A stretch of 52,936 nt of DNA from Rhodospirillales bacterium (GTDB taxonomy: Bacteria > Pseudomonadota > Alphaproteobacteria > Acetobacterales > Acetobacteraceae), in NCBI GenBank assembly GCA_031420655.1, contig JANONC010000363.1, forward strand, positions 1 to 52,936, in the 5' to 3' direction. Numbering within the stretch: the first letter of the stretch is position 1; every line of letters begins with the position of its first letter. Position numbers and translations under genes: made by a program. The notes under the pieces are model-generated. The model did no database searches. It was not told the origin of the DNA and worked only from the letters and a program-made list of their open reading frames with translations. Below, piece after piece: positions 609 to 52,936 of the stretch.

Positions 609-612
609 TGGA

Positions 613-631: not shown

Positions 632-685
632 AAGAAATTATTAAGTGGTGTTGAGCGTGCTGTGCTCAATTTGAAAACTTGTAGC

Positions 686-1342: not shown

Positions 1343-1365
1343 CCTTAACCCTTATCTGGGATTAA

Positions 1366-1500: not shown

Positions 1501-1702
1501 GATTGCTCCGCCGAGCGGCTCGCAGGGACGGCTTTTGTTGTTCACTTTAATTCCGGCCGTCATTCGTTTGCATGACGACGCGCCGCCCCGCTCCGTGCAG
1601 TGAATAGAGGCATATCCGTGGGGTGACACATGCTTGAGCATCTGACGCGACGGGCCGTTTCATCACCGGCCCGGCCACCCAAAAACCGGGGGGCGTAGCC
1701 CT

Positions 1703-34700: not shown

Positions 34701-37700
34701 GCGGCGCGTTCTTAAAAGACGTCGTCGACAGCACGTTCAAGTTCGACTCCCTCACGCATGACCGGGTGTATGTGCCAACCGGCAGCGAAAACCTGAACTT
34801 CAACGTCTACATGCCGCTGGCGCTCACGCCCAACCTCAAGATCGTCGTCACGGCCGCGATCGACGATGACGGTACCGTCACGTCAAAGGCGCTCCAGGAC
34901 CTCGCCCGCGACACCAACGCGCCAGACGCGTTGGCCGGCACGGTCATCAAGCAGACATTCGATATTCCTGGATCGTTCTTCCAAGAGTTCAACAAATCCG
35001 TTCACCTGGCCGGGTTCGGTGGGCACCAGGTGCTGTTCACGATCACAGCGTTGAACGCCAATGGCTCAATCGCCGCGCCGAATGCCGTCCTCAACGTGCC
35101 CAACCCGGCCACGATCCTGGGCGAAGGCTTCAGCTCGCTCTTCCTGTTGCAGGACGTGAGCTTTGCCGCCCAGCCCGATGCCAACGAATATGCCACCGCG
35201 ACGACCAAGCAACTCGGCGTCGTGACCGCGACGGGCACGCCCACGGCGGATCTCACGCTCGACGCCGTCACGCGCGTGGCGGCTGAGGCACGCGACAACT
35301 GGGTCACGAGCGGCCTCGTGCCGGACGCGGCGGCCAGGCTCGCCTCCGTGCAGGTCGATGTGGGGCTGCTGACCAACGGACAGATCGGCGGTTACAGCAA
35401 CGGCACTATCACCATCGATGCGTCGGGCTCCGGCGTGGGCTGGTACACCGGTGACGGCAGCGCCTACGCGGCCGGGCCCAACAACACGTTCCTGGCCATC
35501 ACCGGCGGCCCGGCCGCGCAGCACTTCGACCTGCTGACGGTGCTGGAGCACGAATACGGCCACGCCCTCGGCCTCGATGACTTGCCGGACGGCGCGGTGC
35601 CAGGTTCGTTGCTGGCTGTCTCGTTGCACGAGGGCGTGCGGATCCTGCCGACGGCCCGCGACCTGCAGACGGCACCCGCGGCCCCGGTGGCACCCGTCGT
35701 GACCCGTGCTAGCCTGGGCCTTAGCAACCATAACGCAGTCATCACGTCCGGTGTGGCGCTGGACACCCCGGCGCCAATCTATGGCCCGCTCGGCAATGGC
35801 GGCTTCACTATCACGGACCCGGCCGCCGCCGGCTATGCCTGGAACACCACCGGCACCGTTGGCTTCACGGCGGGTCACGCGACACTCACTGAGAACCGGA
35901 CGGTGCTGTCCACCCTCGGCCAGACTTTCCTGCTGGGTGGCACGCAGACGACATTGTCGTTTACCATACAGGGACAGCTGTTCCAGGATGCAGGCCGCCC
36001 GTCCGACTCGTTCGAGGTATCGCTGGACGGCCCGGGTGGCACGCCGGTCATGGGTGCGGCGGGCCTGACCCGTACCGACGATCTGCTGGACATCCAGGCA
36101 GACGGGACTGTGTTTTTGGCGCAGGGCGTGACCGTCAGCGGCCTGCGGGCCGATGGCAAGATCGACCTGTCGGCCGGGCCGCACACGGTGACGATCGAGA
36201 CCAGCACGCTGTCTCGCAATGCGTCGCTTACGCTCGACATCGCGCTCGTGACCTTTGGCACCCACCCGGCTGCGGTGACGGTCGCCAACGTCGGCGGCAC
36301 CAGCATTAGCGGGCCCATTGCGGCCAACGTGACGGCACAGGCCGTGTCCGGCACCCCTGTCAAGATCGACGTGCTGTCGGCCGATGGCGGCACGGGTCTG
36401 TCGCTTACCGCCGTGGGCGCGCCGTCGCACGGCACGGCGTCCATCCAGGACGGGCAGGTGCTGTACACAGCCGCGGCCGGCTACACCGGCGCAGACCAGT
36501 TCGTCTATCGCATCACCGACACTGCGGGGCTTACGGCAACCGGCACTGTGGCTCTCACGGTACGGCAATTGGTCGTACCGCCATCGACGGTGCCGGAAAC
36601 GGCAACGGTGGCGGAAAACGGCTCGGTTCTGATCGACGTGCTGGCGCAAGATAGCGGGACGGGGTTGGTAATCACCGCGCTGTCACCCGCGTTGCATGGT
36701 GCCGTGGCGCTGGCGGATGGCAAGGTCTTGTACACTCCGGCCACGGGCTATTCGGGCGCGGACGCGTTCACCTACACCATCACCGGCGCTGAGGGTGCCA
36801 CGGCGCAGGGCACTGTCACACTCAGCGTTGTGGCCAGCGCGCCGGCGCCGGTCGCCCGGCCCGCGACCGCTACGGTGGCCTCCGGTGCCACGATCGTGCT
36901 GGACGTTTTGGCAGCCGATACCGGCGTGGGTATCGCGCTGACCGCCGTCAGCACCCCCGCGCACGGTACGGCCAGCATCGTCGCGGGCAAGATCAGCTAC
37001 ACCGCCGACACCGCCTATGCGGGAACGGACCAGTTCACCTACACGATTACAGATCAGCTCGGTCAGACAGCCAGCGCCAGCGTCGGCCTGACCTTAATTG
37101 CGGGCGCGGTAATGCCGGTCGCCAAGCCGGCGAGCGGCACGGTTGCTGCGGGCGGCACCATTGTCATCGACGTGCTGGCATTAGATACCGGCACCGGCAT
37201 CACACTCACTGACGTCGGCACGCCGTCGCACGGCACAGCTAGCATCGTGGGTGGTAAGATCAGTTACACCGCCGGGGCAAGCTTCGCCGGGGCGGACCTG
37301 TTCGGCTACACGATCACCGATACGCTTGGCCAGACGGCGACCTCGGTCGTGGGCCTGTCGGTCGTGGCGGGTCCTGTACTGCCGGTTGCCAACCCTGCGA
37401 GTGGCACGGTCGCGTCTGGCGCTACGGTGGTAATCGACGTGCTGGCGCTTGATACAGGTACTGGCATCACACTTACTGACGTCGGCACGCCGTCGCACGG
37501 CACAGCCAGCATCTTGGGTGGTAAGGTCAGCTACACCGCCGGGGCAAGCTTCGCCGGGGCGGACCAGTTCGGCTACACGATCACCGATACGCTTGGCCAA
37601 ACGGCGACCTCGGTCGTGGGCCTGTCGGTCGTGGCGGGTCCTGTCCTGCCGGTTGCCAAGCCGGCGAGCGGCACGGTCGCGTCTGGCGCTACGGTGGTAA

Positions 37701-40700
37701 TAGACGTGCTGGCGCTTGATACAGGCACTGGCATTTCACTTACCGCCCTTGGAACGCCGGTGCACGGCACGGCCAGCATCGTGGGCGGCAAGATCAGCTA
37801 CACCGCAAATGCCGACTACGCCGGGGTAGACCAGCTCAGCTACACCATCACCGACTCGCTCGGGCAGCCCGCTACCTCCATCGCCGCGGTCACGGTCGTG
37901 CCGCCCAGCGATGCCGTGCCGGTCAAACCTACCGTCTTCTCCCCGGCGCTGGTGGTGGCGCAGAACGGGCCTACGACCGCCATCGGCATCGCCTTGCCGG
38001 CTGACCCGGCTTATCCAGCCACGAGCCTGGTCGTCACCATCGGCACCCTGCCCAGCACGGGCGGCGTGAGCCTGCCGGACGGCACGGTCATCACCGCCGG
38101 GCAGGTGCTGACGGCACAGCAACTTGCGGCGTTGCAGTTCACCCCGGCCCCGGACACCGCGGGCGTCAGCTCCACCCTGACCTACACGGTGGCGGACCCG
38201 GCTGGGCGCACCGCCACCGGCACCGCCACGCTCGTGATCGGGCCTGCGCAGGGCCACCCCGTTGCTGGCACCGTGCAGGTCACAGTCGCCATCGCCCCGG
38301 TCCCGCTGGCGATCGCGCCGCCGTTAGACGGCGACTACGCCACCAGCACGCTGCTGATAACCCTGACCGGCTTGCCGACCAGCGGTACGGTGTCGCTGGC
38401 AGACGGAACCGCTGTTGACGTAAGCCAGGTGATGACCGCGGCGCAGCTGGCCGGCCTCGTGTTCAGCGCGACACCCGGCGCGTACGGCTCCAGCTCTGCC
38501 CTTACCTACACCGTGCGGGACCCGGCCGGCGCCCTGGCGGCCGGGGTGGTTGGTATAACGGTACTGGGTGCCACCACGGCACCACCAGTCCTGACGCTGG
38601 CAAGCGGTGCTAGCCAGGCCATTCTGGACGAGGCGACCGCAGTGTTGTCCGGTACCGCAACACCCGGCGCGCTCATTACGCTGTCCGGCGGCCTCGGCTC
38701 CGCCCAGGCAGGGGCAGATGGGTCGTTCATCATCGCCATCCCGCTATCCGATGTGCCGCTGACGGGCTCGCGGCTGTCGATCACCGCGACCGCCGCGTTG
38801 GCCGGGTTCACGCTGTCGCCACCCAGCGCCGCGGTATCGCTGCTCGTGCTCCCGCCACCCGGCGCGGATGGCGTCGTGCTAACGGATGTCAGTTCCATAG
38901 ATATCGCGGACGCACTCCATGCCGGCTACCGCCTGCAGTTCACGGCGGTAACCGAGGCGCTTAACCTCGTTGATGGCGTGCTGAGCGTCGGCGTCGATAC
39001 GCATGAAGCCTTCCTGCAGCGCTTGTATGAGGGCCTGCTGGGCCGGTCATATGAGACGGGCGGCATGGAGGCCTGGGTCGCGGCGCTAGCCTCTGGGCGC
39101 TCACTGGAAGACGTGGCCCAGGGCTTCCTCAACTCGGCCGAATACCAAACCCGTCCGCAGCCCCGGACCGAGCCGGAGTTCATAACCAGCCTGTACCAGG
39201 GCTTCCTCGGGCGGGATCCGGTTGCGCCGGAGCTGTCGTATTGGCTGGAGGTGGGCAACCGTGGCCTCAGCCATGCCCAGATCGTCGCCTCATTCGGTAC
39301 GCAGCCAGAGGCCAAGATCCACTTGGCCGCGACCACGGCCCGCGTTTTCGCCCGCAGCGAGACCGCCACCGCCGTGCACGACATTTACAAAACCGCGCTG
39401 GGGCGAGAGGCGGAGCTGGGTGGCTTGGCCACGTGGACCGGTGTCGCCGGGCAGGGTGGCCTGCAAGCGGTCGCGGCTCTCTTCCTGCTGGAGCCAGAAG
39501 CGGCCGGCCTGCATGCGCGGCAGAGTAACGCGGATTACGTTCGTTCCCTGTACCTCGCTGGCCTCGGACGGGCGGCTAGCGACGCGGAGGTCTCGTATGG
39601 TGCCGGGCAGCTCGATGCCGGACTGTCGCGGGGCGCATTCCTACAGGGTGTCGCTTTGTCGCCGGAAGCGAGGGCGCACCTAACCTCGGATGATTTCAAC
39701 TCGCTGGCGCCAATCTTTGCGCTGCCTGTGGCTGCGGTCGCAGCCACTACTGTGCCGTCCATCACGCAGCCTGCCGCACGCCCCGCGCTGTTGGCGACGG
39801 CCCCGGCTACCGCGCTGGTAAACACGCAGGCTGTCGTCTCCCTTTCGGGCGGCGGGCGTGTCATGGGATGGACGGTGCTGTGGGGTGACGGCAGCGCGGC
39901 CATGACGGTCGCGGGTGACGTGGCGGAGGCGCAGCACAGCTACACCGCACCCGGCACATACGCGGTGCAGGCGGTCGGACGCGCGGCAGACGGCGTGTTC
40001 GCGGCCAACCCGCTCGCCATCGCGGCCACTGGCACGACATTTGTCCCTGCAGGCGTCGTGGCGGAACAGACCGGCTTTAATGCCCGGTTTAACCAGGCGC
40101 TGACCATCAGCAGCCTCACCTTGCTGGCGGATGCGTCCGGTACCGCACCGTCCGTTCTTGTCACTGGGCCAGGCGGCGGCACGATCGACGGTTCCGTCGT
40201 GGCGGACGCGGATGGCGCGGGCTTCCACTTCGTGGCTGCGGCCGGCGCGCTAGCACCCGGTGCCTACAGCGTCGTGGTGCGCAGCGCGGTGCTGGACGCG
40301 CGGGGCGAGGCATTGGACGGTGCGGCCGTGGGCGCGGCAGGCAATGACGAGCGGTTCAGCGTCACTGTCCCGGCCGGGGATGCGGTGACGATGCCATCGT
40401 TCATGCGGGGACCGGGCCAGGCCGTCAGTGTACCGGTTGCGGACAGCGCGCTGCCGGTATCGTTCACCAGCGGGGGGGAGGCGACGCGCCTGGTGTTCAC
40501 CACCACCGCCGATCCGGCTTTACTGGCCATCACCGGGGCCACGGCGGGCGCGGGATTGCCGGCGGGCAGCACCGTCGCCTTCGACACACAGCTCGTCGGC
40601 GGCCAAGCCCGCGCCACGATCACCGTCACGTCACCCACCCCTATTCCCGCTGGGACGGTGCCGTTGGTTCTGCTGCAAGCGGCGGTGCCGGCCAGTGCGC

Positions 40701-41513: not shown

Positions 41514-41789
41514 ATGAGCGATGACCCTGCCGCCGCGCAGCAGAAGCTGCGGTTTGACACGACCGGTATCAAAAGCAGCTACTGCAACGTCTGCAACGCG
41601 ACCAGCACCCGCGAAGAGGTTGTGCTGAATTTCGGGCTTAATAAGACGTGGGACGTGGCCGGTGCCGACCTGCAAGTGCAGTTGGAACACCGCATCATTT
41701 TAAGTCCATTTGCCGCCAAACGCCTGCAGCAACTGCTGACACAACTGATGACGGAGCATGAGGCGCGGTACGGACAACTAAACCAGTAA
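41514..41789 (+). CDS. DUF3467-like small protein (91 aa)
   Basis: Internal ATG of ORF 41397..41789, with a strong SD. The sequence MSDDPAAAQQKLRFDTTGIKSSYCNVCNATSTREEVVLNFGLN...HRIILSPFAAKRLQQLLTQLMTEHEARYG resembles the DUF3467 family pattern (Y.N......s..E.vL.Fg, then a C-terminal helix). The assignment is from memory. Confidence 0.75.
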   Translation: MSDDPAAAQQKLRFDTTGIKSSYCNVCNATSTREEVVLNFGLNKTWDVAGADLQVQLEHRIILSPFAAKRLQQLLTQLMTEHEARYGQLNQ

Positions 41790-41802: not shown

Positions 41803-43638
41803 ATGGATAACACGAGGCTGGAAACCGGCATCAAAACCGCAGATCTGTGGGCGGAGTTTGCGGTTGCTGATGGGATGGACGCGCTGTGCCGGTCCTGGTT
41901 ATCGCTTTATTGCCGGAACCTCACGCACCTGTCCCGGGCGATGCTCGTTGTTTCCCGCCCCGGCGGACCGTTCCAGCCGCTGGCCGTGTGGCCCTCGTCA
42001 CTGACGGACCTGACCGGGTTACAGGGTGTAGTAGAACGCTGCATCCGCACTGGCGAGCCGGAAGTGGAACCGCAGGAGACCGGCGCGGGCACGCACGTGG
42101 CGTACCCATTCCTGGCAGACGGTCAGGTCGTGGCCGGCGCTGTCGTGCTGGATTTGGGCCCGGGCGCGGCCACCGGCCTGGCGCAGCTCTTGCGCGACCT
42201 GCACTGGGGCATGGGCTGGCTGGAAGCGCAGTCCGTCCGTGACCGTATGGCCCGCGAGCACCTACGCACCGCGAACCTATCCGCCGCTTTGGATCTAGTC
42301 GCGCTGGCCAACGAGCATGACCGCGCGGATGGCATGGCGATCGCGATTGCCAACGAACTGGCAGCCCGGCTCGGCGCGTCCCGCGTGGCGATCGGGCTGA
42401 GTGGGCCCAAGGGTGCTCGGCTACTCGCGCTGTCGCACACGGCCTGGTTCAAGCGCAACACTGCCCTGGCCCTTAGCCTGTGTTCGGCGATGGACGAGGC
42501 CATCGACCAGCGCGCCCCGGTCCGGCTACCGCCCGCCGCCGGGGAGCCGGTCCGCATTCAAGTGGCGCATGAGGCATTGCGAGGGTCGCTTTCGGGCGAT
42601 GGCGCGATCCTAACCGTGCCGATGCTGACGGAGCATGGGCCGGTGGGGGCCATCACCGTGCTGCATCCCGGCACACTGACCGTGGCGCAAGCGCGGCTGG
42701 TGGAGGCGGTTGCAGCCCTGCTCGGCCCCGGGGTGCACGCCAAGCAACGGGCGCGCCGCTGGCTATCCGGACGGTTGGTGGACGGAGCCGCGGGTGCCGC
42801 CGCCGCCCTCGCTGGCCCGCGGCATTTGGCGTGGAAATTCGTTGGTATTTCGGCGCTGGTGTCCGTCACGGCGTCGCTGATCGTACCCATGCCGTTCCGG
42901 GTTTCGGCCAAAGCGGTGCTGGAAGGGGAGATACAGCGCGTCGTGGCGGCCCCGTTCGAGGGCTTTATTGCCACCGCCCCGGCCCATGCGGGTGACGTGG
43001 TGGCGGAAGGCACCGTTCTCGCCACGTTGGACGACAATGACCTTCGACTAGACGCCGTAAAGTGGCAATCCGAGCATGACCGGCTGACGCTCAAGCTACG
43101 GGAGGCGTTAGCCAAGCATGACCCGGCCAGCGCCGGGCAGCTGGACGCGCAGTTGCGCCAGACGCAGGCGCAGGCCCGGCTGACGGCGGCCAAGCTCGCG
43201 CGGTCGGTCATTACCGCGCCGATGGCGGGTGTGGTCGTGTCGGGCGATCTATCGCACTCGATTGGCGCGCCGGTCGAAACGGGTAAGGTGCTGTTTGAGG
43301 TCGCACCACTCGACCGCTACCGCGTCGTGGTGCGGGTGGATGAACGCGACCTGCGGTTCGTGCAGCCCGGGCAGGGCGGCACGATGCTGCTGTATGGCCT
43401 GACCAGCGCGGCGCTGCCGTTCGTGGTGCAGCGCGTCACCCCGGTCGCGCAGGTCGATGGCGGGCGCAATACCTTTCGGATCGAAGGCGCATTGGCGGAC
43501 GGCGCGGCGCTCGATAGCCTGCGGCCCGGTATGGAGGGGATCGGTAAGATTGAAATCGGCGAGCGGTCCGTGGCCGCCGTGTGGACGCGCAGCCTGGTGG
43601 ACTGGGTGCGCAACACCGCCTGGGCCTGGACCCCCTGA
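41803..43638 (+). CDS. GAF-GAF-TM-HlyD family periplasmic adaptor (membrane fusion protein)
   Basis: 611-aa ORF starting 13 nt after the previous stop. There are two GAF-like segments (about aa 10-150 and 165-325) and one hydrophobic helix (WKFVGISALVSVTASLIVPMPF). The C-terminal HlyD pattern reads VAAPFEGFIATAPAHAGDVVAEGTVLATLDD...coiled coil...ITAPMAGVVVS...GKVLFEVAPLDRYRVVVRVDERDL. Confidence 0.85.
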   Translation: MDNTRLETGIKTADLWAEFAVADGMDALCRSWLSLYCRNLTHLSRAMLVVSRPGGPFQPLAVWPSSLTDLTGLQGVVERCIRTGEPEVEPQETGAGTHVAYPFLADGQVVAGAVVLDLGPGAATGLAQLLRDLHWGMGWLEAQSVRDRMAREHLRTANLSAALDLVALANEHDRADGMAIAIANELAARLGASRVAIGLSGPKGARLLALSHTAWFKRNTALALSLCSAMDEAIDQRAPVRLPPAAGEPVRIQVAHEALRGSLSGDGAILTVPMLTEHGPVGAITVLHPGTLTVAQARLVEAVAALLGPGVHAKQRARRWLSGRLVDGAAGAAAALAGPRHLAWKFVGISALVSVTASLIVPMPFRVSAKAVLEGEIQRVVAAPFEGFIATAPAHAGDVVAEGTVLATLDDNDLRLDAVKWQSEHDRLTLKLREALAKHDPASAGQLDAQLRQTQAQARLTAAKLARSVITAPMAGVVVSGDLSHSIGAPVETGKVLFEVAPLDRYRVVVRVDERDLRFVQPGQGGTMLLYGLTSAALPFVVQRVTPVAQVDGGRNTFRIEGALADGAALDSLRPGMEGIGKIEIGERSVAAVWTRSLVDWVRNTAWAWTP

Positions 43639-43640
43639 TC

Positions 43641-45791
43641 GTGACGGAAACGTTCTTCGCCCAGAACTGGTACCGGGTCGCAGCGCTGCGGCCGCGCTTG
43701 GCTGCGCATGTTGTGGTCGAGCGGCACCGCTATGGCGGGCTACCCTGGTACGTGTTGCTGGACCGGCTATCGGGCCGGGTGCACCGCATGTCGCCTGCCT
43801 CGTTCCTGTTCGCCGTGCGCCTCGATGGCGTCCGTACGGTGGACGAGGTGTGGCAACAAACGGCGGCCGAACTGGACGATGACGCGCCGGGGCAACCGGC
43901 CGTGCTGCAGATACTCATGCAGTTACACGCAGCCGATTTGCTGTCCGGTGATATGCCGCCCGATGCGGCGGAACTGCTGTCGCGGCGCGACCGGATGGGC
44001 CGGCAGCTGCTGACGCGCAACCTGCGCTCGCCCATGTCGATACAGGTGCCGCTGTTTGACCCCGACCGGTTTCTGAGCGGGACGCTGCGTGTGGTGCAGC
44101 CGCTGCTGGGCCCGGTGGGCGGCGTGCTGTGGCTGCTGCTGGTCGTGGCTGGGGCGGTGACGGCGGGACAGCATTGGGACGAGCTGACGGGCAATCTGCT
44201 GGACCGGCTGCTGGGCACTCAGGGCCTGCTGGCTATGGCGCTCTGCTACCCGGTCCTGAAAATATTGCATGAACTCGGCCATGGCTGGATGGCCAAGCGC
44301 TTCGGCTGCGAAGTGCGGGAGATGGGCGTCATGCTGCTCGTGATGATCCCGGTGCCGTATGTGGACGCCAGCGCGTCGGCGGCGCTACGCAATAAATGGC
44401 AGCGGGCCGCGGTGGCGTTCGCAGGCATCGCGGTCGAACTCGGCCTGGCCGCCGCCGCAACGCTGGTGTGGGCCGCGGCCGAGCCGGGCTTGCTGCGCGC
44501 GGTGGCATTCAACGTCATGGTCATCGGCAGTCTCTCGACCCTCGTGGTCAACGGCAATCCGTTGCTGCGCTTTGATGGCTATTACGTGCTGTCAGACGTG
44601 CTGGAGGTTCCAAACCTTGCCCAGCGCGGCAGCCAGTTCTGGGGCTATGTGCTGAACCGCTTTGTCCTAGGTGTGCCGAACCTGCGGCCTTCTTCCGCAA
44701 CCATGCGGGAGCGGTTCATATTTGCGCTCTATACCCCGGCGGCCCTGGCCTATCGCCTATCGGTTTCCGCCGGGATCGCACTCTATGTCGCCACACATTA
44801 CTTTATTTTGGGCGTGGCGCTGGCGGTGGTCATGCTAGCGACGACTGTCGCGTGGCCCGTGCTGCGGACAATAGGGCGGATCGTGGCGTCGCCGCTTTAT
44901 GCACGCTGCCGTGCCCGCGCGACTGGGCTGACGTTTGCCGGGATCGCCGCGGTGGTGCTGCCGCTAGCGCTGGTGCCGGCCCCCCTGCACAGTACCGGGG
45001 ACGGCGTCGTGTGGCTGCCGCGGGAGGCGTTCGTGCGCGCTGGGGCGGACGGGTTCGTGCAGTCCGTCACCGCAGCAGGCGCGCAAGTGCCGGCGGGTGC
45101 CCTGCTGGTCGCGTTGGCCTATCCCTTGGCGGACGCGCGGCTGGAGGTCGAGCGGGCGCGGGTGGACGAGCTGCGCGCGAAGTACGAGACGGAGTGGGTG
45201 ACGGATCGGATCGCCGCTGCAGTTACAGGGTTCGAGCTGTCGCAGCAGGAGGCCGTCTTGAACCGCGAGCAGCAGCGGCAAGCGCGCATGACGGTCACGG
45301 CTGGCACGAGCGGCGCATTCAGTCCCATCCGGCCCACCGGCGATCTGGAAGGGCGATTCGTTAAAGAGGGAGAGGTGCTGGGCTACGTCGTCCCACCCGG
45401 CGGCGAGCTGGTCCGGGTACTCGTGCCGCAGGTGGATATCGCACTGATGCAGGAGCGGCTCGTGCGGGTCAGCATCTTGTTGCCCGATAGCCGGACCACC
45501 GTCGCCTCCAGCGTTCTGCGCGCCGTGCCCGGCGGCGATAGCGACCTGCCGAGCGAGGCGCTGGCGGCCAGCAATGGCGGCTCCATCGTGACCGACCCGC
45601 GGGATACAAAGACGATGCGCGCCTTTGAGCGGCATTTCCAGTTCGACTTGTCCCTCCCCGCGACAGCCGCGGTGCGCGCCGCCGGACTTGGGTCGAAGGT
45701 GTTGGTCCGCTTCGATTATGCGTGGGAGCCGGTGGCAAGCATGGTGTATCGCCGAGTGCGCCAGGGATTGCTTGGCCGTTTTAACACGTGA
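43641..45791 (+). CDS. PqqD-like / S2P (peptidase M50-like) / HlyD-like fusion membrane protein
   Basis: ORF 43581..45791. GTG 43641 lies 2 nt after the upstream stop, and TETFFAQNWYRVAALRPRL looks like the family N-terminus (ATG 43581 is the alternative). The PqqD-like segment is YVLLDRLSGRVHRMSPASFLFAVRLDGVRTVDEVWQQTAAEL. HELGH is at 44268-44282. The second S2P motif is NGNPLLRFDGYYVLSD (about 44549-44590). There are several hydrophobic helices. The C-terminus carries a lipoyl/coiled-coil/barrel HlyD-like part (ARLEVERARVDELRAKYE...RFVKEGEVLGYVVP). Confidence 0.85.
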   Translation: MTETFFAQNWYRVAALRPRLAAHVVVERHRYGGLPWYVLLDRLSGRVHRMSPASFLFAVRLDGVRTVDEVWQQTAAELDDDAPGQPAVLQILMQLHAADLLSGDMPPDAAELLSRRDRMGRQLLTRNLRSPMSIQVPLFDPDRFLSGTLRVVQPLLGPVGGVLWLLLVVAGAVTAGQHWDELTGNLLDRLLGTQGLLAMALCYPVLKILHELGHGWMAKRFGCEVREMGVMLLVMIPVPYVDASASAALRNKWQRAAVAFAGIAVELGLAAAATLVWAAAEPGLLRAVAFNVMVIGSLSTLVVNGNPLLRFDGYYVLSDVLEVPNLAQRGSQFWGYVLNRFVLGVPNLRPSSATMRERFIFALYTPAALAYRLSVSAGIALYVATHYFILGVALAVVMLATTVAWPVLRTIGRIVASPLYARCRARATGLTFAGIAAVVLPLALVPAPLHSTGDGVVWLPREAFVRAGADGFVQSVTAAGAQVPAGALLVALAYPLADARLEVERARVDELRAKYETEWVTDRIAAAVTGFELSQQEAVLNREQQRQARMTVTAGTSGAFSPIRPTGDLEGRFVKEGEVLGYVVPPGGELVRVLVPQVDIALMQERLVRVSILLPDSRTTVASSVLRAVPGGDSDLPSEALAASNGGSIVTDPRDTKTMRAFERHFQFDLSLPATAAVRAAGLGSKVLVRFDYAWEPVASMVYRRVRQGLLGRFNT

Positions 45792-45809: not shown

Positions 45810-47792
45810 CTACTCTGTACCGGTGAAGCCCATTCCGCGGTCGGTTTCCTCGTCCTGCTGCATTTGCTGGCGGCGCTGCTGGGCGTTCATGCGGCTTGCG
45901 GTGCGCTGCGCATGATGGCGCAACAGGGCCAGGCCGCCGGGCAGCTTTCCGGCGGAAGCAGCAAGGCGGGGTGCGAAGCGGTGGAACAGTTCGTCATCCC
46001 GGGCCACGATGCTTTCGCACGATCCCGGGTCGCCCTGGCGTCCGGCGCGGCCGAACAGCTGGCGGTCGATGCGGCCGCTATCGTGATAACCGGTCAGGAT
46101 GACATGCAGCCCGCCCGCGGCCGCCACGCCGGGGCCGAGCGTAATATCCGTCCCGCGGCCAGCCATGTTGGTCGCGACCGTGATCCGGCCTGCCTGACCG
46201 GCGGCGGCCACGATAGTCGCCTCATTCACGTCTTGCCGGGCGTTCAGTACGACATGCGGTAGCCCACGCTCTGCCAGCACTGCGGAGAGCGACTCCGATG
46301 CCTCGACCGACTGGGTACCGGCTAGCACGGGTTGACCTGCGCACGAGACCTGCGCCACCCGCGCTGCGACCGCCTGCCATTTCGCCGCAGCATCGGGCAG
46401 CAACATCCCTCCCAGATTGCGGCGCTGCACCGGGCGATGGGTGGGCATGTGGACGGTACGCAGCCCATAGACGCCCTGCAACTCCCCCGCGACCTCCCGC
46501 GCCGTGCCAGACATGCCGCTCAGATGCAGATAGCGGTTGAAAAAGCGCTGGTAGGTGATGCGGGCCAGGGTCACACGCCGCCCAGTGAGGGTCACGCCCT
46601 CTTTCGCCTCCACCATCTGGTGCAATCCTTCTTCCCAGCTGCGGTCCGGCATGACACGCCCGGTATATTCATCGACGATCTGAACCGACCCATCGGCGAC
46701 GATGTAGTGCCGGTCGCGGGCGAACAGATGCAGCGCGGTCAGCGCCTGGGCGATCAGCGTTTCCCGCGCAGGGCGGATGCGGAACAGGCCGAGCATATTC
46801 TGGCCGAGCAGCGCTACCTTCTCCTGCCCCCGGGTGGTCAACCGCACGACGTCCGCCGCGGCGTCTATCAGGAAGTCGTCGCCCAGCGCCAGCCGCCGCC
46901 CGATCTCGAGCGCCCGTCCGGCAATCTCCTCCGCGCCTTGGTCGGGCCGGTCGGCGGAGATGATGAGCGGCGTGCGAGCCTCGTCGATCAGCACGCTGTC
47001 GGCCTCATCGACGATCGCCGCATGCAGGCCGCGCAGGACCAGCCCGCCTGCGCCGGACGTACCGACAAGCGACGCAACGGCCTGCCGCGCCTGGCCCTTG
47101 CCGCCGGTCGTCGCGATTCGGTCCTTCAGGTAGTCGAACACCAGTTCCTTGTTGGAAACATAGACGATATCGGCGGCGTAAGCCTGGTGGCGCAACGCCG
47201 GCTCATCTCCTTCGACGACAACGCCCACCGTCAATCCCAGCGCCTCACAGACAGGACGCAACCGCTCCGCATCGCGGCTGGCGAGGTAGTCGTTTACCGT
47301 CACGACGTGGACGGGCTTGCCGGCCAGGGCGAGGTAGATGGCGGGCAGCAGCGCGGTGATGGTCTTGCCCTCACCGGTCGCCATTTCGACAATGCGGCGG
47401 CTGGTGAGGGCACGTCCGCCGAGCAGCTGGACCGGGTAGTAGCGCAGGCCGAGGTGGCGCTCGACGGCGGTTGCCACCAGGCCGAACACCTGCGTGCGCC
47501 GGGCGCCGGGGTCTTTCAGCAGCGCCGTGCGCAGCGCCGCCGCACTGGCCAGCAGCGCGGGTCCGCTGTGGCCGCTGACAGACGCAGCCTCCCGCGCAAC
47601 GTCAAGGGCAAATTCGGCTGCGCCTGTCAGCCGTCCGGTAAGCGCCGCCCGCCACTGGCCGACCATGGTCGCTACGCGGCGGTCGAACGCATTGCCCGGT
47701 CGTATAAAGCGCTCGGCATAGGGGGCCACGGCATAGCGACGCATGATATTTTCTTGCCACGCCGCAGGACGAAGGTCTAGCAGATACGTCAT
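45810..47792 (-). CDS. truncated SecA-like ATPase paralog (DEAD motor plus preprotein cross-linking region only)
   Basis: YYPVQLLGGRALTSRRIVEMATGEGKTITA (Walker A codons at 47361-47384), HVVTVNDYLASRD, IVDEADSVLIDEARTPLIIS, VATNMAGRGTDI, GRAGRQGDPGS. The protein ends about 60 aa after the last motif. An alternative start is ATG 47744 (MRRYAVAPYAER). Confidence 0.85.
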   Translation of the reverse strand: MTYLLDLRPAAWQENIMRRYAVAPYAERFIRPGNAFDRRVATMVGQWRAALTGRLTGAAEFALDVAREAASVSGHSGPALLASAAALRTALLKDPGARRTQVFGLVATAVERHLGLRYYPVQLLGGRALTSRRIVEMATGEGKTITALLPAIYLALAGKPVHVVTVNDYLASRDAERLRPVCEALGLTVGVVVEGDEPALRHQAYAADIVYVSNKELVFDYLKDRIATTGGKGQARQAVASLVGTSGAGGLVLRGLHAAIVDEADSVLIDEARTPLIISADRPDQGAEEIAGRALEIGRRLALGDDFLIDAAADVVRLTTRGQEKVALLGQNMLGLFRIRPARETLIAQALTALHLFARDRHYIVADGSVQIVDEYTGRVMPDRSWEEGLHQMVEAKEGVTLTGRRVTLARITYQRFFNRYLHLSGMSGTAREVAGELQGVYGLRTVHMPTHRPVQRRNLGGMLLPDAAAKWQAVAARVAQVSCAGQPVLAGTQSVEASESLSAVLAERGLPHVVLNARQDVNEATIVAAAGQAGRITVATNMAGRGTDITLGPGVAAAGGLHVILTGYHDSGRIDRQLFGRAGRQGDPGSCESIVARDDELFHRFAPRLAASAGKLPGGLALLRHHAQRTASRMNAQQRRQQMQQDEETDRGMGFTGTE

Positions 47793-48588
47793 GATCTACC
47801 GCAGTCTTGGTATAATTGTACTGCTCGCTGGGCCTGCTCATGCGGGGGAGTACGCCTGCTTGATCGAGCCGAAGCAGGTGCTGAAGCTCGCTGCACCCGT
47901 GCAGGGCGTAGTGGCCGCCGTAGAGGTTGATCGCGGGGACCGGGTACGGAAGGGCCAGGTGCTGGCGCGGCTGGATTCCGATGTGGAGGAGGCTAACGCG
48001 CTGATCGCCCAAGTGCGTGCGGCCAATGACACCGCGATCCGGTCCGGGCGCGCCCGGCTCGATTTCCTGCGCCGCAAACAGTCGCGCAACGATCAGCTCC
48101 GAACGACCGACGCGGTTAGTTTTGCCCAAGCGGACGAAGCAGCGTCTGACGCGCGCGTGGCCGAAGCGCAGTTGCGGGAGGCGGAGCTGAACGTAGCGCA
48201 GGCGCGTCTGGAGGCGAAGCGGTCCGAGGGATTACTGCAGCAGCGCCGGGTGGTAAGCCCGATCGATGGCGTGGTCACGGAGCGCTCGCTGGGGCCGGGC
48301 GAGTTTCGCAACGACCAAGCGACCATTCTGACGATTGCCGAGATTAATCCACTACGGGTTGAAACCTTTTTGCCGATCGCGGTGTACGGCCAGGTCAAGG
48401 TTGGGGACAAAGCGGTGGTGGTGCCCGAAGCGCCAGTGGGCGGCAGCTACGCCGCGACGGTCACGGTCGTGAATGCCGTGTTCGACGCGGCCAGCGGCAC
48501 GATCGGGGTGCGGCTGGAGCTACCAAACCCCGACCTGCTGTTGCCAGCGGGTATACATTGTCGGGTCCGTTTTTCGGCGGTGCCCTGA
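47791..48588 (+). CDS. small periplasmic adaptor (HlyD/RND-MFP family) with signal peptide
   Basis: MIYRSLGIIVLLAGPAHA/GEY signal. Then KLAAPVQGVVAAVEVDRGDRVRKGQVLARLD, a coiled coil, VVSPIDGVVTERSLGPGE and PLRVETFLP. The longest ORF starts at 47743. Confidence 0.8.
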   Translation: MIYRSLGIIVLLAGPAHAGEYACLIEPKQVLKLAAPVQGVVAAVEVDRGDRVRKGQVLARLDSDVEEANALIAQVRAANDTAIRSGRARLDFLRRKQSRNDQLRTTDAVSFAQADEAASDARVAEAQLREAELNVAQARLEAKRSEGLLQQRRVVSPIDGVVTERSLGPGEFRNDQATILTIAEINPLRVETFLPIAVYGQVKVGDKAVVVPEAPVGGSYAATVTVVNAVFDAASGTIGVRLELPNPDLLLPAGIHCRVRFSAVP

Positions 48589-48603
48589 AGCGCGAAAGGC
48601 GCT
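48589..48603 (+). terminator. weak hairpin immediately after the adaptor gene stop
   Basis: AGCGC-GAAAG-GCGCT, a 5-bp stem with no following U-tract. Confidence 0.2.
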
Positions 48604-48875
48604 ACTTCGCCAAAGGCGATCGAAGAACGCCGTCAACTCGTCAAATATCTCTTTCGATTCCGTGGTATTGAAGCCTAATTACAACGATTAGCCGGTTGCG
48701 TGCCGCGTGCGTTCCCTTGGGTGGAACAGTGCATCAACGCAAGGCGGGGTTGTCGAGAACCTTTCCGGGGCACCTGGCCGCGAGCGCGCCGACGTGAACG
48801 GGGTCCAAGATGCTGGAGTGGTCGCAACGCCGAAGCATCCGGCGAAGATGATATCCGGGGGCATCCGGCAGGGTC

Positions 48876-49112
48876 TCAGAACCACACGACCCGCACTATC
48901 GCGAACCCTCGCCGCAAGCACGCCGAGCAAGCGAAAACCTTCTCGAGGTCTAGGACCCCGTAGTCGGGACCTCGCTGCGCCAGCACGGGTATCACACGGA
49001 CATTGCGCTCCGTTTGGCAGGTGCCGCAGCGGACCACCAACACCGCCTTGGGGTAAACCAAATCGCGTAGGCCCAGGCTGTAAAATGGGATTACCCGGTT
49101 GCTGCCGGCCAT
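48876..49112 (-). CDS. hypothetical small zinc-ribbon-like protein (78 aa)
   Basis: These are the last 78 codons of the long minus ORF 48876..50474, from ATG 49110-49112. The sequence MAGSNRVIPFYSLGLRDLVYPKAVLVVRCGTCQTERN...LEKVFACSACLRRG has two CxxC pairs. It resembles small proteins often found beside mobile elements in alphaproteobacteria (from memory). Confidence 0.35.
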   Translation of the reverse strand: MAGSNRVIPFYSLGLRDLVYPKAVLVVRCGTCQTERNVRVIPVLAQRGPDYGVLDLEKVFACSACLRRGFAIVRVVWF

Positions 49113-49268
49113 GGCCAATCGTAGTTCGGAGCACAACAAGAACACTGGGTCATGGCCACCTTCCGTCGTACCTGCCCAGCCTTCGTCGGCCGACCGCGCT
49201 TCTTGGGTGGCTCCTACTTGGATTACGGCTCCGGCGCGGCCGCGGCTTTCCTGGCCGGCCACCTGTCG

Positions 49269-50430
49269 ATGTCGAAACCCCTGCCGCAAGGGGTCACCTA
49301 CCTCGGCACTATGCGTTGTCGCACCCGCAAGCTCGTAGACGGCAAGCGGCTGGACAAGACCTTCCCAACCGCGCGGCTGGCGCGCGAGTGGCTGGAGTCT
49401 GCTTCCGTCGCGGTCCGGGCCGGAAAGTTCGTCGACTCCAGGCCGCTGGACAGGATGACCGTCGGCCCGATGGTGGATCGCTTCGCCGAGGAGACGATGC
49501 AGGAGGGCGGCCCGCGGCGCGGCTACAAGCAGGACATAGGACATGTTCTTGCTCTGAAGACCGACGAGATTGCGCTCCTGCCGCGATCGAAGCTGACCCC
49601 TTTCGCTGTCCGCAATTTCCGCGTGAGCCAGCTTGAGGCGGGTTTCGCGAAGGCGACCGTGGTCAAACGCATGAACTTGCTTGCCTGAGTGTTGAAGCAC
49701 GCCACGAGCGAGTAGGGCCTGCCGCTGGTCAAAAACGTGGCGTCTGGGAAGCTCGTCAGCCGTCCAAATGGGGGCCGACCAGAAGCGCAAATGGCGTCTC
49801 CGCGTTCCGGGCGTGGCAGCCCAGCGGGTGGCGGAAAGCCGGGGCGAGGGGTGCATTCCCCACCGAAGAAAAGGTCCTCTACGAACTCGATGGAGAAGTC
49901 CGATAACATATTGAACCTGCACATGGTGCGGTTCGCGATGGCGTAGAGCACCCGTCTCGGGGAGCAGTTGGGGATGCGCTGGCGGCATGTCGATTTCGAG
50001 GCTCGTTCCCTCACTCTCGTCGGTAGGTTTGGACGATGGCACGAAGAACGAGGACCACCGCGAGGAACTGGGGCTCGAGGTCCGGGCGCTTGTGCCCCGT
50101 TCGATCGAGACCCTTCGGGAGATTAAACCGGAGAACGTGGATCCCAGCGCCCACGTTTCCCGGCGGGCGGATATAACGCCTTCAAAACCAGGATCGGACG
50201 GCCACTTCGGACGGCTGCCGGGAGGATGACAGGCACCATGAAGGAGCTTCACTACTAGGACGACCTCCGCTGCCATGACCTGAGGCACGAGGCGACGAGT
50301 CGGCTCGCAAAGGTGTTCACGGACAGCAAGATGCTCATGAGCGTGATCGGCCACATGGACCACAAGTCCATGCTTCGATATTACCAGCCAGATCCGAACA
50401 AGCTGGCCATGATCGCTGAGGAACACGGGC
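49269..50430 (+). pseudogene. tyrosine recombinase / phage-type integrase, multiply disrupted
   Basis: N-terminus: MSKPLPQGVTYLG...DRFAEETM...TVVKRMNLLA. Then in-frame TGA 49686-49688, TAG 49713-49715 and TAG 49944-49946. RLGEQLGMRWRHVDFEARSLTLVG is followed by a frame change near 50030 (TKNEDHREELG...VPRSIETLREIK) and TAG 50256-50258. The catalytic end is LRCHDLRHEATSRL...VIGHMDHKSMLRYY. Confidence 0.8.
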
Positions 50431-50464
50431 GCGCGCGCGGCCGGGATAGAGGTGGAGCCGGGCG

Positions 50465-50593
50465 CGCACCACATAGGCTCTCGGTTTCCGGCGCCATCCG
50501 GCGTTCGGCGGCAAAGCCGATCATCTCGCGCAGGAATGTGGAAACGGAACCCTTTTCCAGCACGTCGCGAAGGGCGATCTTGTCATTGGTCAA
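50465..50593 (-). pseudogene. IS256-family transposase N-terminal remnant
   Basis: The minus-strand translation LTNDKIALRDVLEKGSVSTFLREMIGFAAERRMAPETESLCGA resembles the conserved N-terminus NLRALVEK.PDADLLREMIGFAAQRLMELEVEGLTGA of alphaproteobacterial IS256-family transposases (from memory). Similarity stops abruptly. Confidence 0.55.
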
Positions 50594-50818
50594 CCCGGTG
50601 GCGATCCTTGAGTTCAGGATGTGTCTCGACAACCCAACCCTTGTTCAACACGGCCGCAGTGACCACCGCCTTGGACAGGTCACCCGCCTACGTCAGACTA
50701 GCGGCGGGCGCTTCGGCGGGCGACTTATCCACCGCTGGTACAGCACGTCAGGGGCACAACCCCACGTGGCCAGGTGTGTTCCATGGCAAGGCTGGGTCCA
50801 CCCAGGGGGGCCGAAGCG

Positions 50819-51082
50819 CTACTTGAGCTGGCTATCTTTGCTACCCCGGCGGTTGAACCCGGTGTTCGCCGGGCGACGATCCCGCGCCGACTGGCAGGCG
50901 ATGCAGGTCCGGACGCCGGGCAGCACCCGGCGGCGCGCTTCTGGGATCGTGTCGCCGCATTCAAGGCAAATGGGATCGGCATCACCCGTGGGGATGCTGG
51001 CGCGCGCTCTGAGAACGCCATCCATGACGGTGTCGTCGATCTGATCCTGCACCGCCCCGTCCGGCGCCCACCCGCTTGCCAT
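50819..51082 (-). CDS. TraR/DksA family C4-type zinc-finger protein
   Basis: ICLECGDTIPEARRRVLPGVRTCIACQSARD is the classic CxxC-N17-CxxC TraR/DksA finger. An AGGGG SD-like sequence lies upstream. Confidence 0.8.
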   Translation of the reverse strand: MASGWAPDGAVQDQIDDTVMDGVLRARASIPTGDADPICLECGDTIPEARRRVLPGVRTCIACQSARDRRPANTGFNRRGSKDSQLK

Positions 51083-51186
51083 GATCGACCCCTGCTATCT
51101 CTCTTTTCTGGGAGAGATGTCGGAATGAGCCCTGGTGGTTCCAAGGCTCAAACCGCTGCGCTGGACCGGGTGCCCCAGCTCCTCGC

Positions 51187-52194
51187 CTACTTCAAAAGCG
51201 TCGAAGTCAGGAACGCCATCACGTCTGCCCGTGCGGCCTCGGTCGCTTGCGCGTTGTGGCCGACATGCGCGCCGATCGCGACGCAAGGCGCGGTCTTGAG
51301 TAGGTAGGGCTGTCCCGTGTCCGCATCGACCAAGGTGCCGCCTGGTCCCTCCTTCAACCGGCAGTTGCGTGTGCTCTGCGCTTTCGGCACCGCAAGCAGC
51401 GGCGGCGAGGTCGGGCTGTCGAAGCCGTGCTGGCTGTCTGCGTACTCGGTCAGCGCGATGTCCACCCCGGCCGGCTTCAGGCGCGACACCAGGGTCCGGC
51501 ACGCCGCCGGGTTCACGTAGTCGTCGCTGCTGCCGTGATACAGCCGGATCGGTACCCCGCCCATCGCATCGTCCTTGTCGTAGGCGATGTTGCAGGGCGT
51601 ATAGAACCCGACATGAGCGGCAAACCGGTTCTGGCTGCCGAAGCCCGTGCGGAATCGCTCGACCGCCGCATAGACTGCCGGCACGGCACCCTTGGAGAAG
51701 CCCCAGACGGCGATGCGGTCCGGTCGGATGCGCGGGTGCGCCGCCAACACGTCGAGCGCCCGGAAGGCGTCCACCGTCATCGACAGCGAGTTGAGCTGAT
51801 CCTGGTCCTCGACCGTCGAGACGATGCCGCGGCCGGAGAAGCTATCGAGGATGAAGGCAGCGATCCCGGCCTCGTTCAGGATATGCGCCCACATGTCCGG
51901 GCCGGCGCCGATCCCGCCCGACCCATGGATTAGGATCACCGCCGGGACCCGGCCGCCCGCGCCGACCGGCAGGCGTAACTCGCCGCCCAGCAGCACCTCG
52001 GGTCCTGCCTTTTCGCCGCGCAAGAACGCATCCAATGGCAATGTTTGCGAGCGCACCGGCAGGATCTCGATCCGGCCCGGCCAGCTGCTGCCCTGGGCAT
52101 GGGCCGTGACAGGCGCGGTAAGCGCTCCGAGGGCTATGAGGCCCGCGATGGCGATCGTCGTCAGGCCGACGCGCCGCTGTACAAAATTGTGCAT
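51187..52194 (-). CDS. secreted dienelactone-hydrolase-family alpha/beta hydrolase
   Basis: The signal peptide is MHNFVQRRVGLTTIAIAGLIALGALTAPVTAHA. Other motifs: VILIHGSGG, nucleophile elbow VWGFSKGA, YHGSSDDYV and SQHGFD. A strong SD precedes the start. Confidence 0.85.
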   Translation of the reverse strand: MHNFVQRRVGLTTIAIAGLIALGALTAPVTAHAQGSSWPGRIEILPVRSQTLPLDAFLRGEKAGPEVLLGGELRLPVGAGGRVPAVILIHGSGGIGAGPDMWAHILNEAGIAAFILDSFSGRGIVSTVEDQDQLNSLSMTVDAFRALDVLAAHPRIRPDRIAVWGFSKGAVPAVYAAVERFRTGFGSQNRFAAHVGFYTPCNIAYDKDDAMGGVPIRLYHGSSDDYVNPAACRTLVSRLKPAGVDIALTEYADSQHGFDSPTSPPLLAVPKAQSTRNCRLKEGPGGTLVDADTGQPYLLKTAPCVAIGAHVGHNAQATEAARADVMAFLTSTLLK

Positions 52195-52198
52195 GGTT

Positions 52199-52204
52199 CC
52201 TCCC
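52199..52204 (-). promoter_or_regulatory. Shine-Dalgarno of the hydrolase gene
   Basis: The minus-strand GGGAGG lies 4 nt upstream of ATG (52192-52194). Confidence 0.7.
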
Positions 52205-52353
52205 GGCGCCTCATCCGTTCGGGCGCATGGCCCAGTTTGCGCATGCGGACCGGGAGCAAGGCAACAGGTCGGGTGAACGCCGGTCCCAGACCGTGTTTCC
52301 AGGTCGGTGCCTACCGGACTTACGCCCCGCCAAGTTCCTTCAGCGCCAGGCCG

Positions 52354-52542
52354 GAGTGCCAGATCTTCGTCGTGCGTTCGACGGCGCGCAACAAAGGTCT
52401 GACCGCGTGTTCGAACGTACTGACGGTCCGCCAGGACCGACTGGAGAGCATTGTGCTGGATAGGCTGCGAGACCGATTGATGAACCCGGTGCCGTTCGAG
52501 GCGAACGCAGCAGAATTTACTGTCGAGTGGAACCGACTACAG
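52354..52542 (+). pseudogene. large serine recombinase fragment (zinc-ribbon / coiled-coil region)
   Basis: RSTARNKGLTACSNVLTVRQDRLESIVLDRLRDRLMNPVPFEANAAEFTVEWNRL resembles Y.CS.ARNKGTCDN.LTIRRD.LE..VL.GL...LM.P.....F..E...E.NRL of alphaproteobacterial recombinase-family proteins (from memory). There is no catalytic N-terminus, and the fragment is cut off before the IS at about 52610-52636. Confidence 0.45.
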
Positions 52543-52635
52543 CCGTTGCAACTATGCCTCGCAGAAGAGGTAATGAGACCTGTGCGCGGGCGGCTTGAAC
52601 TGGCACGGCCCTCAGTGTCTGTCCGGCAGGAGCTT

Positions 52636-52655
52636 GGAGCCCGTTTGAGAAGGGT
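52636..52655 (+). repeat. probable left terminal repeat of the right-hand IS5-family element
   Basis: GGAGCCCGTTTGAGAAGGGT aligns with GAGGCCGTTTCGAATCGG at 1366-1383 (the end of the remnant). An alternative boundary is AGTGTCTGTCCGG at 52614-52626, which resembles the reverse complement of 618-631. Confidence 0.4.
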
Positions 52656-52717
52656 TGTGGCGGCTTCGGCGGTTGTGATTGAAGCTTGGGATGTGGACCC
52701 GAGAGAGCCGTGGCCGG

Positions 52718-52936
52718 ATGGCCGACATTGCGCGCAAGACCAAGCGGTATCCGACTGACCTGACCGACGAGGAGTGGGTCCGGATCGAGCCGCTGATGCC
52801 CAAACCGCCGAAACGGGGTCGCAAGCCCAGCGTGGACCTGCGGGAGATGCTGAACGCGATCCGCTACATGGCCCGCAGCGGCGGCGGCTGGCGGATGCTG
52901 CCGACTAATTTTGGTCCTTGGCAGACGGTTTACTGG
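52718..52936 (+). CDS. IS5-family transposase, N-terminal 73 codons (runs off the window end)
   Basis: This ORF is not in the supplied track because it has no stop inside the window. From ATG 52718 it reads MADIARKTKRYPTDLTDEEWVRIEPLMPKPPKRGRKPSVDLREMLNAIRYMARSGGGWRMLPTNFGPWQTVYW, the typical IS5/IS427-type N-terminal (DUF4096-like) domain. Confidence 0.85.
   Translation, partial: MADIARKTKRYPTDLTDEEWVRIEPLMPKPPKRGRKPSVDLREMLNAIRYMARSGGGWRMLPTNFGPWQTVYW

Follow-up and report, generated by a model that had tools for sequence, protein, structure and literature searches.

A large family of motor-only SecA proteins and its conserved gene cluster point to a separate export route for LEPR-XLL proteins

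A stretch of 52,936 nucleotides from a Rhodospirillales bacterium of the family Acetobacteraceae (GenBank assembly GCA_031420655.1, contig JANONC010000363.1, positions 1 to 52,936; in what follows, the window is this whole stretch) encodes a short paralog of SecA, the gene for which lies at 45810..47792 on the minus strand. Comparison of this protein and of its gene neighbourhood with those of its relatives points to a large undescribed family of motor-only SecAs, to a conserved gene cluster around them and to a route that would export LEPR-XLL proteins separately. We consider the short SecA to be, with a probability of about 60%, a catalytically competent and dedicated SecA motor which has lost the module that couples SecA to SecYEG, SecB and the ribosome, and which would work instead with the envelope complex encoded beside it. 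The broader proposal, that the cluster is an unrecognised envelope-spanning secretion system which exports adhesins of up to about 15,000 amino acids (aa) N-terminus first, independently of both SecYEG and ABC transporters, in Proteobacteria and Planctomycetota, is more tentative, and we hold it at a little under even odds.

A SecA protein that ends in its scaffold helix

The maximal open reading frame (ORF) of the short SecA gene encodes 660 aa and comprises the nucleotide-binding domains NBD1 and NBD2, the PPXD domain and a stub of about 35 aa from the scaffold helix. The true start is probably M17 at 47744, which is the start in most homologs and would give a protein of 644 aa. All five motifs quoted in the original prediction for this DNA were located in the 660-aa translation: MATGEGKT (residues 137-144), VVTVNDYLA (163-171), IVDEADSVLIDEARTPLI (260-277), TNMAGRGTDI (541-550) and GRAGRQGDPG (581-590). 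Pfam finds SecA_DEAD at residues 61-439 (E 1e-87), SecA_PP_bind at 293-395 (E 4e-24) and P-loop_SecA from residue 454 (E 1e-47). With SecA_DEAD, PPXD and the P-loop NBD2, and with Walker A, DEAD, motif V and motif VI all present, the protein is a motor ATPase of the SecA superfamily.

Absent from the Pfam matches are SecA_SW, which comprises the scaffold, the wing and the two-helix finger, and SEC-C, the Zn-binding tail. That the wing domain, the two-helix finger and the C-terminal tail are lost, as had been predicted, is borne out by these matches, by the point at which the alignment ends and by tblastn, in which the C-terminal 270 aa of five canonical SecAs found no C-terminal remnant in the window (all E>0.9). 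A 901-aa enterobacterial SecA, which appears to share the E. coli numbering, was included in a multiple alignment; there K143 corresponds to K108, D262 to D209, residue 608 to 601, Q629 to 631, R640 to 642 and D647 to 649, while residue 654 falls at about 667. The chain, whose C-terminus reads ...DRGMGFTGTE, therefore breaks off at about E. coli residue 655-669, partway along the long scaffold helix, of which it keeps the first 35 or so residues. A stop within the first scaffold helix had been foreseen, and the end lies 70 aa past motif VI where about 60 had been estimated.

The remainder of the chain is a SecA motor in sequence and in predicted fold. Residues 101-608 align to residues 64-551 of B. 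subtilis SecA (E ~1e-120, against solved structures), and identity to housekeeping SecA over the motor is 40-46%. An AlphaFold2 model made from 27 family members (predicted local distance difference test, pLDDT, 80; predicted template-modelling score, pTM, 0.74) ends in a lone terminal helix at residues 620-654. A Foldseek search with this model places SecA structures best (1tf5, template-modelling score 0.78, E 1e-46), with SecA-N68 (5k9t) at rank 15 and the mycobacterial SecA2 (4uaq) among the matches.

Two further features of the original prediction did not survive alignment. An N-terminal extension of about 100 aa had been proposed; in the alignments, though, canonical residue 6 is already reached at residue 40, and canonical residue 66 at residue 101. 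Counted from M1 the extension is about 34 aa long, and counted from M17 about 18 aa, and the next 60 residues are the normal N-terminal helices in diverged form. The motif APYAER (residues 23-28; 47709..47726, minus strand) lies within this short extension. Nor is the middle region shortened, as PPXD covers positions 8-110 of the 110 in the Pfam model and equals that of B. subtilis SecA in length, while residues 101-608 are 20 aa longer than the matching B. subtilis span. Compared with the enterobacterial SecA, PPXD is about 16 aa shorter and an NBD2 insertion of about 30 aa, which we take to be the E. coli VAR insert, is missing, as it is from B. subtilis SecA; judging from the alignments, these differences in length are within normal SecA variation.

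A family with its own end point and its own clade

Short SecAs of this kind form a family of more than 150 clusters at 50% identity, nearly all of them about 640-690 aa long and with a common end point. Our close-homolog set, the 120 best matches from a search of 5.8 billion proteins, ranges from 575 to 702 aa and has the identical three Pfam domains and no wing domain throughout; it includes proteins from Mesorhizobium, from Oceanicola granulosus HTCC2516, from an Acetobacteraceae metagenome-assembled genome (MAG) and from a gammaproteobacterial MAG. The diverse set, the 150 best matches found with HMMER over 1.84 billion representatives of 50% identity clusters, has a median length of 663 aa. 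All but a few of its 149 new members (140) measure 600-720 aa, and the remainder are fragments and one protein of 1,240 aa.

Conservation is strong in the catalytic motifs and at the very end of the chain. An alignment of 27 family members has Walker A, DEAD, motif V and motif VI invariant, together with Q629, A632, R640 and D647 of the terminal helix and F656 and G658 at the extreme end. The C-terminal MGFTG of the window protein (residues 654-658; 45819..45833, minus strand) is an instance of the family hallmark x[GA]F[AST]G, which is present in 105 of 118 close homologs and in 91 of 140 diverse representatives; we infer that this end is a candidate docking motif. APYAER, present in 102 of 118 close homologs and 8 of 140 diverse representatives, belongs to a proteobacterial subfamily and is not family-wide. 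The window protein has the features by which we define the family: a length of about 640-690 aa, the scaffold-helix stub, the x[GA]F[AST]G end and a gene for a PqqD-M50-HlyD fusion adjacent or near.

The family also separates from canonical SecA by descent. A neighbour-joining tree of the motor region was built from 70 short SecAs and 65 canonical ones, the latter an arbitrary sample, among the matches listed, from a scan of genome contigs that also turned up loci of Planctomycetota, and used as an outgroup rather than as a census; the two groups separate in 62 of 62 bootstraps. Family alignment and phylogeny, to which the original prediction had looked for an answer, hence put the short SecA in a clade of its own, apart from the canonical SecAs.

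These data bear directly on the suspicion that the gene is a secA pseudogene, truncated or in decay, or else an annotation artefact with a missed continuation, for which the sole support is its short length next to the 800-900 aa of a housekeeping SecA. The end point and the terminal motif recur across hundreds of homologs, length and C-terminal motif being common to those of Alpha-, Beta- and Gammaproteobacteria and Planctomycetota, and the catalytic motifs are all invariant. The window holds no remnants of a C-terminal region, the clade is separate, and the convergent M50 gene, which comes to within 18 bp of the stop codon, leaves no room for a continuation. We reject both the truncated pseudogene and the hidden downstream continuation, and leave them a vanishingly small probability.

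About 12 cultured Alphaproteobacteria carry their family member on a plasmid, megaplasmid or chromid, and in these the short SecA is therefore presumably an extra copy. On one such plasmid, NZ_CP085155.1 of Pseudosulfitobacter sp. DSM 107133, tblastn finds two SecA-like places, which may reflect a second copy or a second system.

Two loci from Planctomycetota carry SecA paralogs whose chain likewise stops within the scaffold helix, L017 (Phycisphaerae MAG, ~9800..11755) and L043 (Planctomycetaceae MAG, 293..2239). Both are without the xGFxG end and neither is beside genes for M50 or membrane-fusion proteins (MFPs), their neighbours including diacylglycerol kinase, PilM and thiamine pyrophosphate-enzyme genes. 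Short length alone is therefore not diagnostic of the family, and there may have been more than one origin or diversification of motor-only SecAs.

Family members go by a variety of names in RefSeq and PGAP, which do not agree with one another and are in part wrong: 'prepilin peptidase', 'DEAD/DEAH box helicase', 'preprotein translocase subunit SecA', 'translocase' and 'hypothetical protein' all occur, and examples are found at 19812..21728 of locus L008 (Methylosinus sp. C49 plasmid pMSC49a) and at 41991..43952 of locus L006 (M. ciceri R30 plasmid). NCBIfam release 20 has no model specific to the short SecA family, and a full-text literature search found no description of the stand-alone family or of its gene cluster. 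A Chlorochromatium preprint concerns an ordinary type I secretion system (T1SS).

A conserved cluster around the short SecA

The original prediction had linked the short SecA to a neighbouring GAF-MFP and an M50 protein, and conserved synteny from Proteobacteria to Planctomycetota argues in favour of this link. In nearly all family loci with enough flanking sequence, in both phyla, the gene for the M50 fusion is adjacent to the short secA or one gene off; the exception, locus L092, is rearranged around its giant gene. The window and several relatives share the order large or giant protein, DUF3467, GAF-MFP, PqqD-M50-HlyD and short SecA, with or without a small MFP.

In the window, the first and by far the longest gene of this series (1703..41488, plus strand) encodes a giant adhesin-like protein of 13,261 aa, the presumed substrate, with matches to Laminin_G_3, CARDB, He_PIG, Big_9, Cadherin_5, RHS, DUF4214 and cohesin. 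It is followed on the same strand by a DUF3467 protein of 91 aa (41514..41789; PF11950, 1.9e-17) and by a protein in which a GAF domain, one transmembrane helix (~343-365) and a periplasmic membrane-fusion domain of the HlyD/RND-adaptor type are combined (41803..43638). The M50 fusion (43581..45791, plus strand) joins a PqqD/RRE-like domain, an M50 membrane domain of the site-2-protease type with the motifs HELGH and NPLLRFDG and at least five hydrophobic segments, and a C-terminal HlyD-like domain; its translation probably begins some 20 codons into the ORF. Its best NCBIfam match is daptide_HExxH / NF041824 (2e-42; 145.6 bits, below the cutoff of 300), and PGAP names its homologs 'PqqD family'. 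On the far side of the short secA, and divergent from it, lies the gene for the small MFP (47743..48588, plus strand; RND_mfp, 129.9 bits against a cutoff of 94.9), which likely starts at M17 (47791), giving a predicted signal peptide MIYRSLGIIVLLAGPAHA with G as the next residue. The window therefore has three MFP-domain proteins, with HlyD_3 and HlyD_D23 matches and, for the small one, RND_mfp.

Taken at their maximal lengths, the ORFs of the short secA and of the small MFP gene overlap head to head by 50 bp (47743..47792). With the likely starts, secA M17 at 47744 and MFP M17 at 47791, a divergent intergenic region of 46 bp remains, so short that both promoters must lie within coding sequence. 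The same head-to-head arrangement, with 21 bp, is found in the unclassified MAG of locus L001.

The same set of genes lies beside proteins of 8,800-14,900 aa in that MAG, in Mesorhizobium, O. granulosus, Pseudosulfitobacter and Methylosinus sp. C49, and likewise in an Acetobacteraceae MAG and three metagenome contigs. A large protein is adjacent in 12 of 12 proteobacterial loci with enough flank. Locus L096 has the cluster beside a LEPR-XLL protein of just 1,897 aa (10060..15753, plus strand), and the substrate therefore need not be giant. The core, consisting of an MFP, the GAF-MFP, the M50 fusion and the short SecA, extends to beta- and gammaproteobacterial MAGs and to MAGs of Planctomycetaceae, Tepidisphaerales and Phycisphaerae. 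DUF3467 and short-SecA homologs occur repeatedly on the same contigs, for example those of 2,812,475, 1,036,609, 234,536, 208,285 and 188,378 bp.

Transporters of the ABC, RND and MFS types, SecY and Asp are all absent from the Pfam and NCBIfam matches of the window cluster genes, and for the core cluster genes of the related loci none of them appears among the Pfam labels or annotations.

Beside the cluster of L096 there is in addition a Peptidase_C93 gene (896..1423, minus strand). We take this family to be that of the LapG-type proteases, and a LapG-like release step may exist.

The edges of the window hold elements of another kind. A DDE transposase gene (51..608, plus strand; PF01609, 6.6e-18) lies at the left edge, and at the right edge 52045..52758 (plus strand) gives a weak match to a recombinase Zn-ribbon (E 0.0085). 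Taken with the relatives on plasmids and chromids, these edge elements suggest that the cluster is mobile or lies in an accessory region. Between the small MFP gene and the right edge, about 2.5 kb (48600..51100) are of lower GC (0.63). From 48.6 to 51.1 kb no ORF matches Pfam, and tblastn for TolC is also negative there; the longest ORF there (48876..50474, minus strand, 532 aa) was considered as a TolC candidate and rejected, as it matches no family, has an R/P-rich composition like that of a wrong frame and is probably not a gene.

The LEPR-XLL leader and the DUF3467 protein

The giant protein begins with a basic stretch, which is followed by HFEALEPRVLLSAD (residues 31-49; 1793..1849, plus strand), a match to the LEPR-XLL N-terminal domain NF012209 (35.7 bits against a cutoff of 17) and presumably its export or leader signal. 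All six neighbouring large proteins with a readable N-terminus carry LEPR-XLL 30-55 residues from the start, namely those of the window, M. ciceri, Pseudosulfitobacter, Methylosinus and L092 and the 1,897-aa protein of L096. Read directly, the leader of the giant protein has no uninterrupted hydrophobic core, and it is for this reason not a classical Sec signal peptide.

Much further along the giant protein, at residues 11283-11287 (35549..35563), there is a single HExxH in a context like that of metzincins or snapalysin (VLEHEYGHALGLDD), for which no Pfam family is reported; its sequence suggests a zinc-protease domain embedded in the protein.

The DUF3467 gene always lies directly after the giant gene. 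Its product is highly conserved over most of its length, with 32 invariant columns, and our guess is that it acts as a chaperone or adaptor. For a SecB-like chaperone in particular the searches speak neither for nor against: Foldseek with the AlphaFold2 model (pLDDT 58) against the PDB gave nothing below E=0.68, and a profile search of PDB sequences gave nothing.

Comparison with other SecA proteins

The short SecA shares with housekeeping SecA (B. subtilis 1tf5/1m6n; E. coli) the fold of NBD1, PPXD and NBD2 and the ATPase motifs. Unlike housekeeping SecA, it is without the wing, IRA1 and two-helix finger and the Zn-binding tail, it is encoded in a non-sec cluster, and it belongs to a separate clade. 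In SecA-SecY structures the two-helix finger enters the channel, while the scaffold and PPXD contact SecY loops; the C-terminal tail of SecA binds SecB and ribosomes, and IRA1 restrains the ATPase. The SEC-C tail is, however, not universal even among canonical SecAs. The short SecA falls below the housekeeping equivalogs TIGR00963 and PRK12904 (534-535 bits versus 800 and 814), matching only at model positions of about 40-490, and below the SecA2 models TIGR03714, TIGR04221, TIGR04397 and NF012136 (416, 404, 480 and 361 bits versus 930, 725, 1085 and 1100); all of these models match it in the motor part alone.

Accessory SecA2 proteins (mycobacterial 4uaq; 6t4h from the Gram-positive accessory Sec system, aSec) are likewise specialised SecA paralogs for particular substrates, and the mycobacterial SecA2 is also wingless. 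They nevertheless keep the scaffold and the two-helix finger and use SecY or SecY2, whereas the short SecA has no finger and, of the scaffold, only the helix stub. It differs from aSec also in that no SecY2 or Asp genes are its neighbours in the window and in that its hosts are Gram-negative Proteobacteria and Planctomycetota. In domain content it is nearly equal to E. coli SecA-N68 (5k9t), which consists of the motor and PPXD and lacks the C-terminal third. N68 (residues 1 to about 610 of E. coli SecA) was made by engineering, has a de-repressed ATPase and does not translocate; the truncation of the short SecA, in contrast, is natural and ancient and comes with a conserved terminal motif of its own.

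The closest published parallel to the short SecA is found inside giant proteins of Omnitrophota and Actinobacteria, which contain fused SecA_DEAD and PPXD domains without scaffold or wing (West-Roberts et al., bioRxiv 10.1101/2023.11.21.568195). Those fused motors form a separate clade, coexist with a normal SecA and lie near type II/IV-like secretion genes (bioRxiv 10.1101/2023.11.21.568195). The short SecA, by comparison, is a stand-alone protein of about 650 aa and is clustered with MFPs and an M50 protease.

A possible export route

The cluster resembles, in its general plan, the T1SS that export giant adhesins (HlyB-HlyD-TolC; LapA/LapBCE), with which it shares the MFPs, in one locus a TolC-family protein, and the giant repetitive adhesin alongside. 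It differs from them in having no ABC transporter, in having an ATPase of the SecA type, and in having an M50 protease-MFP fusion at the inner-membrane position; its signal, LEPR-XLL, is N-terminal, and neither RTX nor a C-terminal signal was found. RRE/PqqD domains bind leader peptides, and MFPs bridge inner-membrane components to TolC. The original prediction was that the short SecA probably does not use SecYEG in the canonical way and may energise the neighbouring membrane complex, and comparative genomics lends support to both parts.

Export by such a route might proceed as follows. In the M50 fusion, the PqqD/RRE-like domain would recognise the basic region and LEPR-XLL leader of the giant protein while these are still in the cytoplasm, with DUF3467 as a possible chaperone or adaptor during recognition. 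The short SecA would dock on the cytoplasmic face of the M50 and GAF-MFP membrane proteins, probably through its family-specific termini and possibly via the xGFxG end, and would thread the unfolded chain N-terminus first by means of its PPXD clamp and ATP hydrolysis. The three MFP-domain proteins would form a periplasmic conduit to an outer-membrane channel of the TolC type, and the M50 protease would remove the leader. The physical interactions in this scheme, the kind of pore in the inner membrane, the direction in which the chain would move and the cleavage of the leader are all inferences.

Several observations weigh against a dedicated motor working in this way. The cluster encodes no obvious protein-conducting channel; a pore made from the transmembrane helices of the M50 and MFP proteins would be needed, and we know of no precedent for one. 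The core genes of Planctomycetota and of some MAG loci have no large protein within 10 kb. A TolC-family gene is adjacent in only one locus, that of Methylosinus sp. C49, where it comes after the cluster, and TolC was not found in the window or in the other related loci; it could be encoded elsewhere in the genome, as for many T1SS. The PqqD match of the M50 fusion in the window is below the Pfam cutoff (21.3 versus 23.4 bits). Lastly, the AlphaFold2 model of DUF3467, made from 32 homologs, has a pLDDT of 58 and shows four strands and a C-terminal helix with no usable fold match.

The missing channel is also a point in favour of a more conventional role, in which the short SecA acts as an accessory motor of the SecA2 kind and passes the giant protein on to housekeeping SecYEG, perhaps as a heterodimer with a full-length SecA that supplies the finger, while the MFP, M50 and TolC components act later in leader cleavage and in passage from the periplasm to the outer membrane. 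The short SecA is a clear SecA homolog with an intact PPXD clamp, and the mycobacterial SecA2 found among its fold matches is SecY-dependent in spite of being wingless. We nonetheless regard such a helper as unlikely. The two-helix finger and most of the scaffold, which together with PPXD make major contacts with SecY, are absent, the leader of the substrate has no hydrophobic signal-peptide core, and no SecA2 equivalog model is reached; the tight synteny across phyla is with M50 and MFP genes, not with sec genes.

A second alternative starts from the M50 fusion, which resembles the RRE-dependent M50 proteases of ribosomally synthesised and post-translationally modified peptides (RiPPs), such as the daptide protease of NF041824, in having a PqqD/RRE-like N-terminus followed by a HExxH membrane metalloprotease. 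That combination is typical of RiPP clusters, the daptide protease is the best NCBIfam match, and the loci of Planctomycetota and MAGs without a giant neighbour fit a RiPP-like or regulated-proteolysis module in which the SecA-like ATPase unfolds a small substrate, DUF3467 or a peptide, and feeds it to the PqqD-M50 protein for maturation and efflux through the MFPs, the giant gene being a mere frequent neighbour. The window protein, however, has an extra C-terminal HlyD-like domain and a giant protein as neighbour, and neither the scans of the window cluster genes nor the labels and annotations of the related loci include any RiPP tailoring enzyme. The 32 invariant columns of DUF3467 are unlike a precursor peptide, and the constant presence of a large protein in the proteobacterial loci, with LEPR-XLL at every readable N-terminus, speaks against a chance neighbour. 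We think this module improbable, more so than the SecYEG helper, and prefer the dedicated motor that works with its co-encoded envelope complex.

Implications for the export of very large surface proteins

For surface proteins of more than 10,000 aa that carry neither a Sec signal peptide nor the C-terminal signal of a T1SS, we know of no explanation of how export is achieved. The cluster described here is a concrete candidate for the export machine of very large surface proteins, and it is genetically tractable because its hosts include Mesorhizobium, Rhizobium, Ensifer, Methylosinus and roseobacters that can be cultured, in which it is often plasmid-borne. If the proposed route is true, the LEPR-XLL signal, DUF3467 and a large family of PqqD-M50-HlyD fusions would all gain a function. 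The SecA motor would then also have been put to a new use away from the SecYEG pathway, in parallel to the wingless SecA fusions of Omnitrophota.

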